Part shown: positions 10,193-28,991 of the stretch, piece after piece
Position numbering within the stretch: the stretch's first letter is position 1
How the letters are laid out: each line of letters opens with the position of its first letter
Assembly: GCA_964419615.1 (NCBI GenBank)
Contig: CAYQPU010000005.1
Coordinates: forward strand, 1-58,036
Source of the DNA: an uncultured Methanosarcinales archaeon
GTDB lineage: Archaea > Nanobdellota > Nanobdellia > Woesearchaeales > JAGVZT01
Reading direction: 5' to 3'
Length of the DNA: 58,036 bases
Made by a program: the position numbers and the translations under genes
Notes under the pieces: model-generated
Seen by the model: the letters and a program-made list of their open reading frames with translations, nothing else
Database searches by the model: none
What the model was told of the DNA's origin: nothing

Positions 10193-10255
10193 ATGGCAAA
10201 ACAAATCAAATATCAAGTTCAAGTTTGTTTAGCTAATGCTTTTTTTAATAATTGA
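10193..10255 (+). CDS. Putative Asn-sensing leader peptide MAKQIKYQVQVCLANAFFNN* (20 aa)
   Basis: Manual translation: ends AAT AAT TGA upstream of asnA-asnS; parallels the Ser and Met leaders. Confidence 0.65.
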   Translation: MAKQIKYQVQVCLANAFFNN

Positions 10256-10316: not shown

Positions 10317-11348
10317 ATGAAACAAACAATATTGGATGGATATGAATCAAAACTTGATTTTTTTGAGACTGAAATTGGAGTTAAGTTAATTAAGGATACA
10401 TTTGAAAAAAGGTTGGCTGAAAAATTGAGCTTACTTAGGGTTTCTGCACCAAGGTTTCTCAAAGTAGGAAAAGGATTGCAAGATGATCTTGCTGGTACAC
10501 AGGTTCCAGTTAGGTTCAAATCCAAGTTCACAGACAAAGATATTGAGATTGTACACAGTCTTGCTAAGTGGAAAAGATGGGTTTTGGGAAAATATGGGTT
10601 TAAATTAGGCACAGGACTGTACACAGACATGGATGCTGTAAGAAAAGATGAAGATGTTTCAGCTATCCACAGTATCTATGTTGATCAGTGGGACTGGGAG
10701 ATTATTCTTTCAAAAGAACAAAGGCATTTGGTTTTTCTCAAAAAAATAGTTGAGAGAATTTATGAAGCCTTGCTTGAAACAGAAGCTGTTGTGGCAGAAA
10801 AATTTCCAAGTCTAAAACCAACTTTACCCAAAGATATTCAATTTGTTCATACAGAAGAACTTGAAAAACGATTTCCAGACCTTAGCCCTAAACAAAGGGA
10901 GTATGAGATCACTAAAAAACTTGGAGCTGTGTTTTTAATTGGTATTGGTCACCCATTAGAATCTGGGGAACCTCATGATGTAAGGGCTGCAGATTATGAT
11001 GATTGGTCAACTAAGACAGAAGAAGGAAAAAAAGGATTAAACGGAGACATACTTGTGTGGGACAGTGTAAGAAAAGATTCACTTGAACTAACATCTATGG
11101 GAATTAGAGTGGATTCTAAAGCAATGGAGTTTCAGTTAAGTCATATGGGACTGGAAAAAAGAAAACTATTGGAGTTTCACAAAGGAGTTATTAAAGACAC
11201 AATTCCTTTAACAATGGGAGGAGGATTAGGTCAATCAAGAATCTGTATGCTACTTTTACAAAAAGCACACATTGCTGAAGTACAATCAAGTGTGTGGCCA
11301 GAAGAAATGGAAAAAGAATTTGAAGAGAAAAGAATTGCCATGTTGTGA
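10317..11348 (+). CDS. asnA: Aspartate-ammonia ligase (bacterial-type asparagine synthetase A)
   Basis: HSLAKWKR, YTDMDAVRKDE, YVDQWDWE, RAADYDDW, GGGLGQSR; SD GGAGGT at 10305. Confidence 0.93.
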   Translation: MKQTILDGYESKLDFFETEIGVKLIKDTFEKRLAEKLSLLRVSAPRFLKVGKGLQDDLAGTQVPVRFKSKFTDKDIEIVHSLAKWKRWVLGKYGFKLGTGLYTDMDAVRKDEDVSAIHSIYVDQWDWEIILSKEQRHLVFLKKIVERIYEALLETEAVVAEKFPSLKPTLPKDIQFVHTEELEKRFPDLSPKQREYEITKKLGAVFLIGIGHPLESGEPHDVRAADYDDWSTKTEEGKKGLNGDILVWDSVRKDSLELTSMGIRVDSKAMEFQLSHMGLEKRKLLEFHKGVIKDTIPLTMGGGLGQSRICMLLLQKAHIAEVQSSVWPEEMEKEFEEKRIAML

Positions 11349-11395: not shown

Positions 11396-12688
11396 ATGAA
11401 ATTTATCTCAATTCAAGAAGCAATAAAAAAAGGAAAAGGTAAAGTTTCTGTTAGAGGATGGGTTTATAGGGAAAGGGGCTCTAATAAGATGAAGTTCTTA
11501 GTACTTAGAGATTCAACACAGATAATACAATGCGTTCTTGCAAGAGCTGATTTTGAAGAGCAGTGGGGAGATATTGATGCACTTGGAATAGAATCATCAG
11601 TAAAAATGCAAGGACAGATAAAAAAGGATGCTAGAGCTCCAACTGGGTTTGAAATCAAAGCTGAAAAAATCGAGATTGTACAAAGTTCTGAGCCATTTCC
11701 AATAACTAAAGATCAATCTGCAGATTTTTTACTTGAAAAACGTCATCTTTGGATTAGATCAAGAAAAATGGTTGCAATTCTAAAGATAAGACATACTGTT
11801 GTTGGCGCCATACATGAGTTTTTTAGAAAAAGAGGGTATATTGAATTCAGCCCACCAATTTTCCAACCAACTCAATCAGAAGGAGGCGCAACTTTGTTTG
11901 AAGTTAAGTATTTCAAAGATAGAATGTATCTTTCTCAGACTTGGCAGTTGTATGCAGAAGCAGCAATATTTGGTTTGGAAAAAATTTATGATATGTCTCC
12001 AACTTTTAGATCCGAGAAATCTAAGACATCTAGGCATTTAACAGAGTTTTGGATGGCAGAAATGGAAGCTGCATGGATGAAATTAGATGAAGTTACAGAG
12101 GTTGCAAAAGAGGAGATTAGATTTATAATAAAGCAAGTGCTCAAGCATAACAAAGAGGAACTAAAAATTCTAAAAAGAGATGTCAAATTACTGGAGCATT
12201 ATGCTAAAGTTGATTACCCAACTATCAAGTATAAAGAAGCACTTGATATTCTAAATAAGAAATATAAAATGAAAGTGCCGTGGGGAAAGGATCTTAGAAC
12301 GATTGAGGAGGAAAAGATTGGTGATCACTTTAAATCGCCAGTTGTTGTTACTCATTTTCCAACAAAGATAATGGGTTTTTATAAGCCAAGCTCTCAGGAA
12401 GATCCAAAGGAAGCCTTGTGTTTTGATATGCTTGCTCCAGAAGGATACTGTGAGATTGTTGGAGGCTCTGAAAGAAGTCTAGACATTAAAGATATGGAAA
12501 AAAGACTTAAGGCAGATGGTGAAGATCCCAAACAATATGACTGGTATTTTGATTTAAGAAAGTATGGTTCAGTGCCACATTCTGGTTATGGTGTTGGTGT
12601 TGAAAGAGTGATTGCTTGGATATGTGGTCTTGACAATATCAAAGATGCAATTCCTTTCCCAAGGACTATGCTTAGGTACAAGCCCTAA
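11396..12688 (+). CDS. asnS: Asparagine-tRNA ligase
   Basis: OB-fold VRGWV, YLSQTWQLY, FRSEKSKTSRHLTEFWM, PHSGYGVGVER, IPFPR. Confidence 0.93.
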   Translation: MKFISIQEAIKKGKGKVSVRGWVYRERGSNKMKFLVLRDSTQIIQCVLARADFEEQWGDIDALGIESSVKMQGQIKKDARAPTGFEIKAEKIEIVQSSEPFPITKDQSADFLLEKRHLWIRSRKMVAILKIRHTVVGAIHEFFRKRGYIEFSPPIFQPTQSEGGATLFEVKYFKDRMYLSQTWQLYAEAAIFGLEKIYDMSPTFRSEKSKTSRHLTEFWMAEMEAAWMKLDEVTEVAKEEIRFIIKQVLKHNKEELKILKRDVKLLEHYAKVDYPTIKYKEALDILNKKYKMKVPWGKDLRTIEEEKIGDHFKSPVVVTHFPTKIMGFYKPSSQEDPKEALCFDMLAPEGYCEIVGGSERSLDIKDMEKRLKADGEDPKQYDWYFDLRKYGSVPHSGYGVGVERVIAWICGLDNIKDAIPFPRTMLRYKP

Positions 12689-20444: not shown

Positions 20445-20492
20445 ATGAATATATACATGAATCAAAGCTCAAGTTCTAGTCAATCTAGCTAA
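20445..20492 (+). CDS. Putative Ser-sensing leader peptide MNIYMNQSSSSSQSS* (15 aa)
   Basis: Manual translation: 7 of the last 8 codons are Ser (AGC TCA AGT TCT AGT caa TCT AGC); directly upstream of serS. Confidence 0.85.
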   Translation: MNIYMNQSSSSSQSS

Positions 20493-20510
20493 GACTAGAT
20501 TCATTGTTTT
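20482..20510 (+). terminator. Attenuator-like hairpin AATCTAG-ctaaga-CTAGATT over the leader stop codon, followed by CATTG and a T-tract
   Basis: Seen directly; function inferred. Confidence 0.55.
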
Positions 20511-20551: not shown

Positions 20552-21829
20552 ATGCTAGATATAAAATTTGTCAGGGAAAATCCTGATAAGGTAAAAGAGA
20601 ATATTAAGAAAAAATTCCAAGAAGACAAACTTCCATTAGTTGATAAACTGCTAAAAGCAGATGTTGATTATAGAGCTGTTTTAAAGGAATCAGAGAACTT
20701 AAGACACGAACGAAATAAAATTACTGCAAAGATTAGTGAACTTAAAAAACAAGGTAAAAATGCAGCAGAATTACTTGCACAAGCCAAAGAGATTCCAGAT
20801 AAAATCAAGAACCTTGAAGTAAAAAGAGATGAGCTTAAGGCAGAGATCAAAGATTATCTATATACAATTCCAAATATGATTCATGAATCTGTGCCTACTG
20901 GCAAGAATGATAAAGAAAATGTTGAAATTCAAAGAATCGGTGAACCAAAAAAGTTTGATTTTGAAGTGAAAAGTCATGTTGAGATTGCAGAAAATTTAGG
21001 GATGGCAGATTTTACAACTTCTGGGGAGATTTCAGGTAATGGTTTTTACATTCTAAAAGGTAACCTAGGACTGTTGAATATGGCTTTGATTAACTATTCA
21101 AGAGACTACATGGTAAAACAAGGTTATTTGTATGTCGAACCTCCTTTGATGATTAGGAAAAAGGTATTGACAGGTGTTTATTCAAATGAAGAGATTGATC
21201 AAATGGCCTATAAGTTAGATGGTGAAGATCTTTATCTAATTGCAACTTCTGAACATCCCATGATTGGTATGTATATTAACAAGACTCTTGATAAAAAAGA
21301 GCTGCCTGTTAAGATCACAGGATATAGTGCTTGTTTTAGAAGAGAAATTGGCAGCCATGGTATTGATGAAAAAGGACTCTATAGAACGCATCAGTTTCAC
21401 AAACAAGAAATGATTGTAATTTGTGAACCTGAAGATTCATACAAATTCTATGATGAGATGCTTGAACATTCAATTAATGTGTTCAAGGGTTTAGAAATTC
21501 CTATAAGAATTTTAGAGTGTTGTTCTGGTGACCTTGCTGACCTTAAAGCTAAAAGCTGTGATCTTGAAGCATGGTCTCCAAGGCAAAATAAATATTTTGA
21601 AATTACATCACTAACAAATATGGAAGGTTCTCAAGCCAGAAGACTTAAGATTAAAATCCAAGGCAAAGATGGCAAGTATTACGCACATACCTTGAATAAT
21701 ACTGTTATCGCCACCTCCAGAGCAATGGTTGCAATCTTAGAGAATTTCCAAAATAAAGATGGTTCAGTGACAATTCCAAAGGCCCTTAGACCTTATATGA
21801 ACGGACTTGAAAAACTAGAAAAGATGTAA
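20552..21829 (+). CDS. serS: Serine-tRNA ligase
   Basis: MLDIKFVRENP, coiled-coil arm, LIATSEHP, FRREIG, HQFHKQE, HTLNNT; SD GGAGGG at 20539. Confidence 0.96.
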   Translation: MLDIKFVRENPDKVKENIKKKFQEDKLPLVDKLLKADVDYRAVLKESENLRHERNKITAKISELKKQGKNAAELLAQAKEIPDKIKNLEVKRDELKAEIKDYLYTIPNMIHESVPTGKNDKENVEIQRIGEPKKFDFEVKSHVEIAENLGMADFTTSGEISGNGFYILKGNLGLLNMALINYSRDYMVKQGYLYVEPPLMIRKKVLTGVYSNEEIDQMAYKLDGEDLYLIATSEHPMIGMYINKTLDKKELPVKITGYSACFRREIGSHGIDEKGLYRTHQFHKQEMIVICEPEDSYKFYDEMLEHSINVFKGLEIPIRILECCSGDLADLKAKSCDLEAWSPRQNKYFEITSLTNMEGSQARRLKIKIQGKDGKYYAHTLNNTVIATSRAMVAILENFQNKDGSVTIPKALRPYMNGLEKLEKM

Positions 21830-25345: not shown

Positions 25346-26764
25346 ATGGTAAAAATGAGAATTGATGGTAACATTATTTGGGCGGGTGCTGATCCAGATC
25401 AATTTCCAAGAGAGATCTCTGGAGGAAAAGGTAATTATCTGTTTGGATTATTCAATTTTGCTCAGGAATATGAGACTGTTATTGTTCCTAATTTTTTTGT
25501 GATTCATACTCGAGCATTTATTGATAGAATAATTCCCAAGGAAATAAGTGAAGGCATAAAGTTAGTTCTACCTAATGATGTTACTGATGGTTATCAAGAT
25601 TTAAATCAACCAACTGCTGTAAGATCTTCATCTCCATTAGAAGATGGAATTCAAGCAAGTTTTGCAGGAAAATATGAGACAGTATTAGGTGTGTGCAGCA
25701 TTAAAGAACTAAAGTCAGCTATGCTCACTGTATATGACTCAACACGATCTGACAGAGTTTATGAATATGCAGAACAAATAGGTATTCCAATCAGTCTAGA
25801 TATGGCAATCATTGTTCAAGAGCAAGTTATGGATCCTGATGCTTGGGGGATTATTAATATTAATGAAGATGAATATTATGTTTCATATGAAGAAAAAGGA
25901 TTTGATGGTTTTATTAACCTATCAGTATCAAAGAAACAAATTGAAAGAGGTTTAGCTGAACGTTCAGAAGAATCAGAATTAAATATTTCTGGTGCAATTG
26001 CTAGTGCTGCAAAAGCGAGGGATTTTCTAAGGTTAGACAAAGAGGCGGAAATACAAGTTGAGTTTTTGTTAAAACAAGGCGAAAAACCGTATTTTGTTCA
26101 AATAAGACAGCTTCCCAAAATTGATCTGGATGAAACAATGGTGGAATTGGAAGTTCCACCGGGAGTTATTTATGCTGAAAGCCAGGTTTGTAATGGTATA
26201 CCTGGAACATGGGAATATCCAGTATATGTCACATTTAGTGAATCTCAATTTGAAGGGATTCTTGATCAAACAGGCCATGCGGGGATTTTAAATCGAGATG
26301 TAACAGACATAGATCGTGAAAAACTAAAAGCTTTTAGTAGTAATAGTAATCTTGCAAGCAATTCAGATTTTTTAGAATTTCGGCAAGTAATGAATAATAG
26401 AAGTTATATGTTTAGAAGCGAGCGCTTTGAAGGATTTACCGAAATATGGAGAAGAGGAGACAAGCTCTTTGGTAATTACATTCTTGTTTGTGATAAACTC
26501 GATGGTAGTCGTGAGGAAATTAGGATGAGTGATTACACTCCAAACAAAGTAGGGATTGTTACCTGTGTAGACAATAATCCATTATCACATGCAATGGTTA
26601 TTTCAAAAGAATTGGGAATTCCTGCAGTGAGTTTTGTGAGTAGTGTAATGGATATGGAATCTTTTTATAATCAAGTTGAAACAGGTGACATTGTGGTTAT
26701 TAAAAGCAATGGTAAAAAAGCTGTTGCATATATTAAAGAAAAAAGATCCAAAGAATTTTCTTAA
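25346..26764 (+). CDS. PEP synthase/PPDK-like ATP-grasp plus C-terminal phospho-His domain protein
   Basis: GGKG, AVRSSSPLEDG..ASFAG, IIVQEQV, FVQIRQL; SHAMVISKELGIPAV. Confidence 0.8.
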   Translation: MVKMRIDGNIIWAGADPDQFPREISGGKGNYLFGLFNFAQEYETVIVPNFFVIHTRAFIDRIIPKEISEGIKLVLPNDVTDGYQDLNQPTAVRSSSPLEDGIQASFAGKYETVLGVCSIKELKSAMLTVYDSTRSDRVYEYAEQIGIPISLDMAIIVQEQVMDPDAWGIININEDEYYVSYEEKGFDGFINLSVSKKQIERGLAERSEESELNISGAIASAAKARDFLRLDKEAEIQVEFLLKQGEKPYFVQIRQLPKIDLDETMVELEVPPGVIYAESQVCNGIPGTWEYPVYVTFSESQFEGILDQTGHAGILNRDVTDIDREKLKAFSSNSNLASNSDFLEFRQVMNNRSYMFRSERFEGFTEIWRRGDKLFGNYILVCDKLDGSREEIRMSDYTPNKVGIVTCVDNNPLSHAMVISKELGIPAVSFVSSVMDMESFYNQVETGDIVVIKSNGKKAVAYIKEKRSKEFS

Positions 26765-26779
26765 AAACATAGCAAACAC

Positions 26780-26786
26780 TTAAATA
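26780..26786 (+). promoter_or_regulatory. TATA box TTAAATA for the Met leader-metG transcript
   Basis: Ends 22 nt upstream of the leader ATG at 26809. Confidence 0.55.
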
Positions 26787-26808
26787 TCTAAATTCATTCC
26801 TAATTGCT

Positions 26809-26868
26809 ATGAAATCAAACCATAGCTTAAAAATGATGACTTCTATGCTAGCTATGCGAATGCGGTAA
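26809..26868 (+). CDS. Putative Met-sensing leader peptide MKSNHSLKMMTSMLAMRMR* (19 aa)
   Basis: Manual translation: 5 internal Met codons in the last 11 codons; directly upstream of metG. Confidence 0.85.
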   Translation: MKSNHSLKMMTSMLAMRMR

Positions 26869-26924
26869 AACCATTCATTGTTTACTAAAATTTATATATT
26901 ATCAATTTTTAGGAGGTAATTAAA

Positions 26925-28991
26925 ATGACAAAAAAACTAATCACAAGCGCCCTACCATATGCTAATGGAAGCATACATATAGGACATTTAGTAGAGTATA
27001 TCCAGACTGATATATTTGTAAGATTTTTAAAATTAAAAGGAGAAGATGCGATTTATTGTTGTGCTGATGATACTCACGGAACACCTATTGAGATCAATGC
27101 TGCAAAGCAAGGCGTGAAACCAGAAGAGTTTATTGCAAAGTTTTTCAAAGAGCATTTGAGAGACTTTAAAAAATTCCATATTGAATTTGACTCATACTAT
27201 ACAACAAATAGTCCTGAAAATAAAAAATATGTTGAGTTAATTTATAAAAGACTCAAAGATAAAGGACTTATTTATACAAAAGATCTTGAGCTTACTTATT
27301 GTGAGAACTGCAAGAGATTTTTACCAGATAGATATGTTAGGGGTACTTGTCCTAATTGTAAAGCAGAGGATCAATATGGAGATGTTTGTGAAAATTGTAA
27401 TACTGCTTACAAAACAACTGATTTACTAAATCCAAAATGTTCAATTTGTAAAAGCACACCAATAAAAAGGACTTCTAAACATTATTTTTTCAAACTAAGT
27501 TCTTATTCTGAAAAATTAAGAGATTGGTTAAATAACAATGAAGAGCTTCAGCCAGAAGTTAGAAACCAAGTCTTAGAATGGATTAATAAAGGTCTTGAAG
27601 ATTGGAATATTAGTAGGGATCCACCTTATTTCGGATTTAAGATTCCAGGAGAAGATGACAAATACTTTTATGTTTGGTTAGATGCCCCAATTGGATATAT
27701 TGCAAGTACTGCTAATTATTGTAAAGATAAATCAATTACTGCTGAAGATTACTGGCAAAAACCAGGCTCAGAAATTATTCATTTTATTGGTAAGGATATT
27801 ATTTATTTTCATCTTTTATTTTGGCCTGCAGTTTTAATGGGGGCTGATTTTAATCTGCCAAAGAATGTTTTGGTGCATGGCTTTCTGACTGTAAACAAAC
27901 AAAAGATGTCAAAGTCAAGAGGAACTTTCCTAACAGCAGAGGAGTTTGGAGAGCTTGCTAAACCTGAGTACCTTAGGTTCTACTATGCAGCTAATTTGGC
28001 TAGAAAAATGTCTGATGTAGATCTTGATTTGGATGATTTTAGAGAGAAAATCAATAATGAATTAGTGGCAAATGTAGCTAATTTCTTTTATAGAGTTTTA
28101 AGCTATTGCAATAAAACTTTTGACTCAAAAATAATTCCAGCAGAAAAAGAATTCTTAGATCAATTCGATTATAGTGAGATTATTAAAGATTATGACAATG
28201 TTGAATTTAGAAGTGCATTAAAAAATATTCTAAAGGTTAGCAGCCAAGGAAATAAGTATTTCCAAGATAATGAACCATGGGCTCTAATCAAAACTGATAA
28301 ACAAAAAACTCATCAGATTGTAAGTAATTGTGTTAACCTTGTGAAGGATATTAATACCCTGCTAAAACCAGTGTTACCTGAGTTTACAAAAGAAATTGAA
28401 AAACAATTAAACATAGGTGAGTTAAAAACAGATTCCTTGGGGAAAAACATAGGTCAGCACAAAATCAATAAAAGTGAAATTATTTTAGAGAAGATTGACA
28501 AAATAGAACTGGACGTTTCAGATCCATTTTCAAATCTTGATTTAAGGGTTGCCAAGGTTATCAATGTTGAGTCTCATCCAGATGCTGAAAAACTTTACAT
28601 AATGCAAATTGATTTAGGTGATGAACAAAGAACTATTGTTAGTGGACTTAGACCTTTTTATTCAGAAGATGAACTTACTGAGAAAAATATAGTGGTTGTA
28701 AAGAATTTAAAACCTGCAAAACTTAAAGGTGTTGAAAGTAAAGGCATGCTTTTAGCCGCTGATACCAAAGAAGGTGCAAAATTAGTTTTTGCTTCTAAAA
28801 GCAAACCAGGAGATGTTGTTAGTGTTGAAGGTATCAAACCAAATCCAAAAGATCAAGTAACAATAGAGGCGTTTAAGAAAATCAAGCTTTTTGCAGAGAA
28901 TGAAACAGCAACTTACAACAAAAAACAACTTAAGACTTCAAAAGAAAATGTGAGTGCTCCAGGAGTAAAACAAAAGACAAGAATTATTTAG
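26925..28991 (+). CDS. metG: Methionine-tRNA ligase with C-terminal tRNA-binding OB domain
   Basis: ALPYANGSIHIGH, Zn knuckles, YVWLDAPIGY, KMSKS, DLRVAKV; SD GGAGGT at 26912. Confidence 0.96.
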   Translation: MTKKLITSALPYANGSIHIGHLVEYIQTDIFVRFLKLKGEDAIYCCADDTHGTPIEINAAKQGVKPEEFIAKFFKEHLRDFKKFHIEFDSYYTTNSPENKKYVELIYKRLKDKGLIYTKDLELTYCENCKRFLPDRYVRGTCPNCKAEDQYGDVCENCNTAYKTTDLLNPKCSICKSTPIKRTSKHYFFKLSSYSEKLRDWLNNNEELQPEVRNQVLEWINKGLEDWNISRDPPYFGFKIPGEDDKYFYVWLDAPIGYIASTANYCKDKSITAEDYWQKPGSEIIHFIGKDIIYFHLLFWPAVLMGADFNLPKNVLVHGFLTVNKQKMSKSRGTFLTAEEFGELAKPEYLRFYYAANLARKMSDVDLDLDDFREKINNELVANVANFFYRVLSYCNKTFDSKIIPAEKEFLDQFDYSEIIKDYDNVEFRSALKNILKVSSQGNKYFQDNEPWALIKTDKQKTHQIVSNCVNLVKDINTLLKPVLPEFTKEIEKQLNIGELKTDSLGKNIGQHKINKSEIILEKIDKIELDVSDPFSNLDLRVAKVINVESHPDAEKLYIMQIDLGDEQRTIVSGLRPFYSEDELTEKNIVVVKNLKPAKLKGVESKGMLLAADTKEGAKLVFASKSKPGDVVSVEGIKPNPKDQVTIEAFKKIKLFAENETATYNKKQLKTSKENVSAPGVKQKTRII

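Follow-up and report, generated by a model that had tools for sequence, protein, structure and literature searches.

The methionyl-tRNA synthetase gene (metG) in the 58,036-nt stretch of archaeal DNA analysed here (hereafter, the window) is preceded by a 19-codon, Met-rich open reading frame (ORF), on which ribosomes very probably gauge the level of charged tRNA, in a manner that has so far been described for bacteria only. What our comparisons support best is the statement that this leader would make metG expression from an upstream promoter (P1) depend on the speed at which Met codons are read, i.e., on charged tRNA-Met. A role as Met-tRNA sensor for metG had been proposed for this ORF when the window was first read (the original prediction), and the proposal is now supported by comparison, both by the conservation of the leader at metG and by the cognate leaders that we found in the same genome. 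We consider it likely that the ORF is a regulatory leader and not a protein gene of the usual kind. The features on which the argument draws are collected in Table 1.

Table 1. Features of the metG leader region, homologues of the Met leader and other leaders of the same genome. Plain numbers are positions in the window; SD, Shine-Dalgarno sequence.
Feature	Location	Strand	Remarks
P1, TATA-like box (TTAAATAT)	26780..26787	+	first T 29 nt before leader ATG
Leader mini-ORF, Met-rich	26809..26868	+	19 codons plus stop, reads MKSNHSLKMMTSMLAMRMR*
Inner helix, 5' arm CATAGCT	26821..26827	+	pairs with 26850-26856
Inner helix, 3' arm AGCTATG	26850..26856	+	contains Met codon 16
Stop-codon hairpin, short, bulged	26858..26876	+	stop 26866-26868 at loop; 5' arm includes last Met codon
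Post-stop box TCATTGTTT	26875..26883	+	common to cognate-codon leaders of the genome and family
P2, A-rich BRE-like stretch plus TTTATATA	26884..26898	+	first T 34 nt before metG ATG
SD of metG, GGAGGT	26912..26917	+	perfect SD, complementary to 16S 3' end; between P2 TATA and ATG
metG, methionine--tRNA ligase	26925..28991	+	688 aa, C-terminal tRNA-binding domain; Pfam, NCBIfam NF001100
Met leader homologue, G001	L002:1326-1406		5' of metG
Met leader homologue, G003	L003:1211-1282		5' of metG
Met leader homologue, G004	L004:3571-3633	minus	5' of metG
Met leader homologue, G002	L006:3156-3224	minus	5' of metG
Met leader homologue, Logan contig	L191:31-105		TTG start
Met leader homologue, JGI contig	L192:20-88		5' of metG
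Thr leader	G000:C1:77218-77277		6 terminal Thr codons; before thrS
Val leader	C10	minus	nine codons with five Val; before valS
Ser leader	20445-20492		15 codons, 7 Ser in last nine; before serS
Cys leader	C2:45195-45230		3 terminal Cys codons; before cysteine-synthase-like (PALP) gene and cysS
Arg leader	C12:9487-9543		3 terminal Arg codons; before operon with argininosuccinate synthase gene
Asn leader (weaker case)	10193-10255		20-codon ORF ending in two Asn; before asnA (10317-11348) and asnS (11396-12688)
Box-bearing mini-ORF with K-S-K-F-K (weaker case)	G000:C1	minus	before lysW/homocitrate-synthase/ATP-grasp operon
Box-bearing mini-ORF rich in Asn, Asp, Thr (weaker case)	C12:16855-16902		before archaeal-type PEP carboxylase and aminotransferase

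Results

The mini-ORF and its genomic context

By Pfam and by the NCBIfam model NF001100 (817 bits, cut-off 587), the product of metG is a full-length methionine--tRNA ligase. Its nearest relatives among MetRS proteins bear names of Candidatus Woesearchaeota (DPANN), and the locus is flanked by ZPR1 and other archaeal genes. The enzyme itself belongs to the long, bacterial-like MetRS class, having a tRNA-binding domain at its C terminus, and its best matches outside DPANN are bacterial (53-60% identity); in one of the relatives discussed below (G002) and in many other archaeal matches, a B3/4 domain (PF03483) is added to MetRS by fusion, which brings the protein to ~910 aa. The gene on the 5' side of the leader (25346-26764) encodes 472 aa in which we recognised only a PPDK_N ATP-binding domain and a weak PEP-utilizer mobile domain; judging from these domains, its product is a truncated PEP-synthase or PPDK-like protein. 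Elsewhere in this genome, we found no Met leader before a MetE-like gene and no member of the archaeal SAM synthetase family.

The leader lies in the 160-nt intergenic gap between the end of the upstream gene (26764) and the start of metG (26925), and its own end is 56 nt from metG. It runs from the ATG at 26809 to the TAA at 26866-26868, with Met at codons 1, 9, 10, 13, 16 and 18, i.e., in 6 of 19 codons, and all six ATGs share a single frame. The original prediction had pointed to five internal ATGs within the last 11 codons, which is what the sequence reads, and had held this density to be hard to obtain by chance. A scan of both strands of the genome (1.48 Mb, 33% G+C, 64 contigs) bears this out: stretches with at least five in-frame ATGs per 11 codons occur at 15 sites, 14 of which lie inside long ORFs, leaving the metG leader as the sole intergenic one.

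Conservation of the leader at metG

The original prediction had called for a search for Met-rich ORFs before metG in related genomes. We sampled metG loci from 40 related genomes, from 160 metagenome or genome contigs and from the contigs encoding the closest MetRS proteins. A homologous Met-rich ORF was present 5' of metG in all seven lineages that combine a MetRS at least 68% identical with readable DNA, namely the window itself, G001, G002, G003, G004 and two metagenome contigs; in the six relatives, MetRS is 68-80% identical to that of the window. The leaders contain 4-9 Met codons each, are 15-26 codons long with variable ends, and have a core resembling ..S-M-L-A-M-A-M-M.. in common. The lack of conservation that the original prediction had named as grounds for its rejection was thus not observed. 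Of the 49 ATGs that the seven ORFs contain, 46 are in frame, and the gaps in the part that aligns (through the central Met codons) measure 3 or 6 nt; towards the 3' ends the alignment is poor. Where flanking sequence exists, in five genomes, the genes 5' of the leader show no mutual similarity, which argues that the leader travels with metG and not with its neighbours.

Beyond these lineages, no Met leader was found before metG in two further family members with a metG match, G007 (MetRS 64% identical) and G005 (37%), in four contigs whose MetRS is 63-66% identical, or in the 160 loci of a MetRS-profile scan (best match at most 72% identical, mostly other lineages). A search for the core motif in 401 genomes of the order matched family members upstream of metG and gave five matches outside the family, none near metG, all of them inside long unrelated ORFs in another frame; the same search with the reversed pattern returned no match in the 401 genomes.

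At the level of nucleotides, the tetranucleotide TTCT is invariant across the aligned leaders, and conservation at third codon positions matches that at the other two. This substitution pattern does not support coding. As far as it indicates, selection does not act on the peptide for its own sake, which fits a regulatory leader, though it is no proof of translation. We also observed that in G003 an insertion of ~140 nt (approximately L003:1283-1450), which forms a long, nearly perfect hairpin, separates the region just past the leader from the metG promoter; it is absent from the six other lineages and has the appearance of a small element, mobile or structured. A shorter, T-rich insertion occupies the same place in G001.

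Two promoter-like boxes and a Shine-Dalgarno sequence

In the original picture, the mini-ORF was an upstream ORF in a plain 5' untranslated region. This picture had to be given up: the leader has a TATA box of its own at the distance typical of leaderless transcripts, and a second TATA box precedes metG. The relevant distance was obtained genome-wide from the long ORFs: measured from the start codon back to the first T of a TATA box, it has a sharp maximum at 30 nt, with 227 genes at 28-34 nt. Only 9 of these 227 genes have an SD-like motif, and the TATA geometry together with the rarity of SD motifs indicates that transcripts are leaderless for most genes of this genome. SD motifs are almost confined to contexts other than a TATA box at leaderless distance. 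The consensus sequence 5' of the TATA boxes is A-rich and BRE-like, and P2 matches this promoter consensus.

Wherever upstream sequence exists, homologues included, the Met leader starts 28-31 nt after a TATA box, and inspection of the sequence before the mini-ORF of the window revealed no SD. As the leader ATG lies 29 nt from the first T of P1, close to the genomic peak, the transcript on which the leader is translated is probably leaderless. The arrangement at metG itself is equally constant: the P2 TATA box is kept in all seven lineages (in the six relatives, 30-34 nt before the metG ATG), and so is the SD. At metG, serS and valS alike, a second TATA box occupies the leaderless position and an SD is present as well. 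Given that the SD of metG is located 3' of the P2 TATA box, between it and the start codon, it would be usable only on RNA begun further upstream, at P1. From this position of the SD we infer two transcripts, a leaderless one from P2 that would provide basal expression and a longer one from P1 that would carry the leader, the post-stop box and the SD.

Cognate-codon leaders before other genes of the same genome

We scanned the genome for intergenic mini-ORFs that are preceded by a TATA box and rich in one amino acid, and for those that are followed by a CATTG-type sequence; the genes behind them were identified with Pfam and NCBIfam. These scans yielded the Thr, Val, Ser, Cys and Arg leaders listed in Table 1. 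The serS locus, which lies in the window as well, has the layout of metG: a probably leaderless mini-ORF with a 7-bp hairpin around its stop codon, the TCATTGTTT box (20501-20509) and then, ahead of serS (20552-21829, TIGR00414), another TATA box and a GGAGG SD. The Thr leader recurs with the box in G001, G003, G004 and G006, and without it in G014; relatives with the Val leader are G001 and G003. (The genome G006, which is unpublished, supplies only a single Thr orthologue, used for the Thr recurrence and for the AUG-pairing and stop-hairpin tallies below and for no other result.)

That four synthetase genes should each lie behind a run of codons for their own amino acid cannot, on this pattern, be a coincidence. 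In the Thr, Val, Ser, Cys and Arg cases, the amino acid of the terminal run is the one that the downstream gene or operon handles, and the simplest reading of this would be an amino-acid-specific ribosomal sensor. Three further mini-ORFs are weaker cases. In the Asn leader, the weakest member of the set, the only CATTG comes 19 nt after the stop codon, and for the leaders before the lysW operon and the PEP carboxylase gene the cognate logic is less clear.

A common box after the leader stop codon

In each of the strong leaders (Thr, Val, Ser, Cys and Arg), a box of the form TCATTGT(T/G)T follows the stop codon at a distance of 5-9 nt, and the same box follows the Met leader of the window. Among the Met leader homologues, that of G004 is without the box, and in G001 the stop codon has shifted downstream of it. 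Strict copies of the box number 17 in the intergenic space, and only two of them come after long ORFs; it does not mark the ends of genes in general. As a working guess, we take it to be a pause or termination signal.

Other roles for the box were also considered. A TTG-initiated ORF inside the box was rejected, its frames and ends being unconserved, and no pairing was found between the box and the 3' end of 16S rRNA. The AUG at the 5' end of the leader RNA may pair with the CAU of the box, a match that is significant by permutation (P ~2e-4 over kin sequences that are not independent of each other); structure prediction gives a closing stem between AUG and box in the cys, arg, ppc and lys leaders and not in met or thr. 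Another possibility is that the SD is masked by the pyrimidine tract that lies 3' of the box.

RNA structure of the leader

The original prediction had described two helices, which fared differently. The inner helix, in which CATAGCT pairs with AGCTATG over a Met codon, is present as described. It is the only consensus helix that RNAalifold reports from the seven-sequence alignment, and it is weak: 80% of the cells are paired and two pairs show compensatory double changes, a result equalled by 38 of 500 column shuffles, so that the covariation is modest and suggestive only. The hairpin at the stop codon is likewise there as written (GAATGCGGT, 26858-26866, pairing with ACCATTC, 26870-26876, around a 2-nt bulge) and is followed by ATTGTTT; as a structure, it does not stand out from chance. 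It consists of 5+2 bp with a bulge, followed by CAUUGUUU; the T-run after the box is only TTT, and the folding energy of the hairpin is no better than that of shuffled sequences (z = 0.1). In five of the seven Met leaders the z of this hairpin is about 0, and the folding energy of the whole leader in the window is ordinary (z = -0.5).

Across leaders of different specificity, hairpins at the stop codon are more frequent than in controls: a hairpin of at least 3 bp encloses the stop in 72% of 18 leaders (orthologues among them not being independent) compared with 32% of 306 control sORFs, and the mean energies are -4.6 and -1.0 kcal/mol, respectively. A scan for bacterial promoters and terminators called no bacterial-type terminator, i.e., no G+C-rich hairpin with a U-run behind it; in archaea, hairpins are not known to be needed for termination. 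Neither mutually exclusive antiterminator and terminator hairpins nor a conserved alternative pairing were found in the leader. At the gathering threshold, Rfam matched nothing in the window except one tRNA, and with permissive settings the best E-values in 26600-27100 exceeded 1.

Discussion

Read-through control at the box as the favoured mechanism

Of the mechanisms considered, we favour read-through control at the box, which is likely to be the best explanation of the observations as a whole. On transcription from P1, the RNA would begin at or next to the leader AUG and a ribosome would translate the leader directly, its speed tied by the five internal Met codons to the supply of charged elongator tRNA-Met, the product of MetRS. 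When Met-tRNA is scarce, the ribosome would stall over the last Met codons, which form or abut the 5' arm of the stop hairpin. The stalled ribosome would cover this arm and the RNA just before the box, and the hairpin with its TCATTGTTT/T-rich box could then not stop the polymerase; the P1 transcript would continue into metG, to be translated via the strong SD. With plentiful Met-tRNA, the ribosome would finish the leader and leave, most P1 transcripts would end or stay unproductive at the box, and metG would be expressed only at a basal level, from the leaderless P2 transcript.

Leader translation, ribosome stalling and the action of the box are putative steps that we read from sequence patterns, and the direction of the response (more metG at low Met-tRNA) is the one that physiology and bacterial precedents would suggest. 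The model also faces a difficulty of its own. Because the stop codon sits inside the hairpin, a ribosome that terminates there would cover the hairpin just as a stalled one would, and read-through control would thus require a pause of the polymerase, or an aCPSF1/FttA-like factor acting at the box.

Alternative explanations

The main rival to read-through control, and in our estimate an unlikely one, is translational attenuation in the mycobacterial style, in which, on P1 read-through RNA, a pyrimidine-rich stretch at and after the box would mask the SD of metG until a stalled ribosome, or a queue of ribosomes, frees it. Such unmasking has been shown experimentally for leaderless polycysteine sORFs (bioRxiv 10.1101/834739), and the predicted probability that the SD is unpaired amounts to 0.09 for serS, 0.15 for valS and 0.14 for the metG leaders of G003 and G004. 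The SD in the window, however, is predicted to be half free already (0.48) and rises only to 0.60 with a simulated stalled ribosome. Over ten leaders, the unpaired probability ranges from 0.07 to 0.74 with no consistent shift upon simulated stalling, and the partner with which the SD pairs is located downstream of the footprint that a stalled ribosome would have.

A second alternative holds that the element acts without being translated and that its open frame is incidental; it would work as an RNA structure, as a small RNA from P1, or through GCTATG repeats serving as transcription-factor sites that act on P2. The even conservation of the three codon positions would suit such an element, the invariant TTCT and the helix with its two compensatory changes point to constraint at the nucleotide level, and the element sits just 5' of a good promoter match. 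An incidental frame, on the other hand, does not account for ATGs that are so consistently in frame, for indels in multiples of three in the aligned part, for a start codon at leaderless distance from a TATA box, or for the SD of metG. The chief objection comes from the leaders of thrS, valS, serS, cysS and the argininosuccinate-synthase operon, which are without such repeats and have in common only their cognate codon runs; we accordingly regard this explanation as improbable.

Less credible still is the idea that the ORF encodes a short hydrophobic peptide, rich in Met and with an independent function, e.g., a membrane or MetRS-binding micropeptide that is merely co-located with metG. The promoter-like box that the ORF possesses, its hydrophobic C-terminal half and a fairly constant order of residues would be in keeping with such a peptide, yet non-synonymous positions show no excess conservation, length and ends vary among the homologues, and the parallel Thr, Val, Ser, Cys and Arg mini-ORFs cannot all be peptides of this kind, which makes the idea very improbable. 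Chance, finally, can be practically dismissed: single coincidences of in-frame ATGs in AT-rich intergenic DNA are expected when very many windows are scanned, but a cluster that is unique in the intergenic space of its genome, absent as a reversed pattern from 401 genomes and kept in seven lineages with different neighbours is refuted as an accident by its conservation.

Significance

If the reading of the leader as a sensor is true, reduced DPANN genomes, which are often assumed to be little regulated, would retain amino-acid-specific control of their synthetases. Going further, we give a slightly less than even chance to the possibility that this Woesearchaeota family runs a genome-wide 'ribulon', in which at least six, and perhaps nine, synthetase genes or amino-acid operons would be controlled by leaderless cognate mini-ORFs and by one TCATTGTTT post-stop signal read by the archaeal transcription or termination machinery. 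Such a ribulon would represent archaeal attenuation with a dedicated signal, mechanistically distinct from the hairpin-switch attenuators of bacteria.

Archaea have eukaryote-like promoters and a eukaryote-like polymerase and are not known to possess Rho, and for these reasons a working archaeal attenuator would reveal how translation talks to the archaeal polymerase or to a termination factor. The metG locus offers a compact, testable module for this question, comprising a promoter, a 19-codon sensor, the common box, a second promoter and an SD, and the parallel Thr, Val, Ser, Cys and Arg leaders in one genome would serve as built-in specificity controls.

Comparison with known systems

The sensing of charged tRNA by a ribosome on a leader peptide is a textbook mechanism in bacteria. 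In the classical attenuators of Escherichia coli, i.e., the pheM leader of pheST as well as trpL, hisL and thrL, the ribosome stalls on cognate codons. The metG leader resembles pheM in being a leader rich in the cognate amino acid before a synthetase gene, with stalling as our proposal. The classical attenuators differ in that an SD precedes their leader, and antiterminator and terminator hairpins that exclude each other come after it, together with a strong intrinsic terminator; at the metG leader we detected none of these.

The tnaC leader of the E. coli tna operon, which works with Rho, senses free tryptophan through its nascent peptide and not through hungry codons. It shares with the metG leader a regulatory position beside the leader stop codon, where a ribosome would block the termination machinery just after the stop, and it may in this respect be a model for the TCATTGTTT box; unlike Rho-dependent control, the archaeal box would need another protein, e.g., aCPSF1/FttA. 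In many bacteria, the same physiological purpose is served by T-box leaders and SAM riboswitches, which adjust metG or methionine genes to the charging of tRNA or to SAM. They bind these ligands as structured RNAs and work with no translation; the metG leader has no Rfam match of this kind.

Closer in form are the leaderless leaders of Streptomyces. In Streptomyces lividans, alaL-alaS, thrL-thrS, trpL2-trpS and leuL2-leuS pair such leaders with synthetase genes, and metL precedes metNIQ (PMC8079986); attenuators of leuS and trpS are also reported in Streptomyces, and pheST is cited (PMC1262725). As here, ORFs with cognate codons, leaderless in Streptomyces and probably so in the archaeon, lie directly 5' of synthetase genes, and a Met-containing leader (metL) exists there, too. 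The Streptomyces systems differ in being bacterial, in using hairpin-plus-U terminators in several cases and in that metL controls a methionine importer and not metG; no common post-stop box has been described for them.

The multi-locus character of the leaders finds its nearest match in mycobacteria, where leaderless polycysteine sORFs act as attenuators at several loci and form a 'ribulon' (Canestrari et al., bioRxiv 10.1101/834739). Like them, the leaders of this genome are short ORFs with a cognate codon run near the 3' end, placed upstream of cognate genes at multiple loci, and the leaderless transcript and the stalled-ribosome sensor of the mycobacterial system are both what we infer here. 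The mycobacterial sORFs differ in being bacterial, in responding to Cys only, in lying before biosynthetic operons and in the mechanism shown for them, the unmasking of a downstream ribosome-binding site. The metG leader, for its part, stands apart by its archaeal host, its TATA/BRE promoters, an aminoacyl-tRNA synthetase as target, the common post-stop box and the second promoter. A full-text search of the literature returned no relevant account of leader-peptide attenuation in archaea, nor of a methionine leader before metG in any organism. What is new here is thus the archaeal host, the pairing of Met with metG, the common post-stop box and the dual promoter, and the kind of regulation that they point to is known from bacteria.
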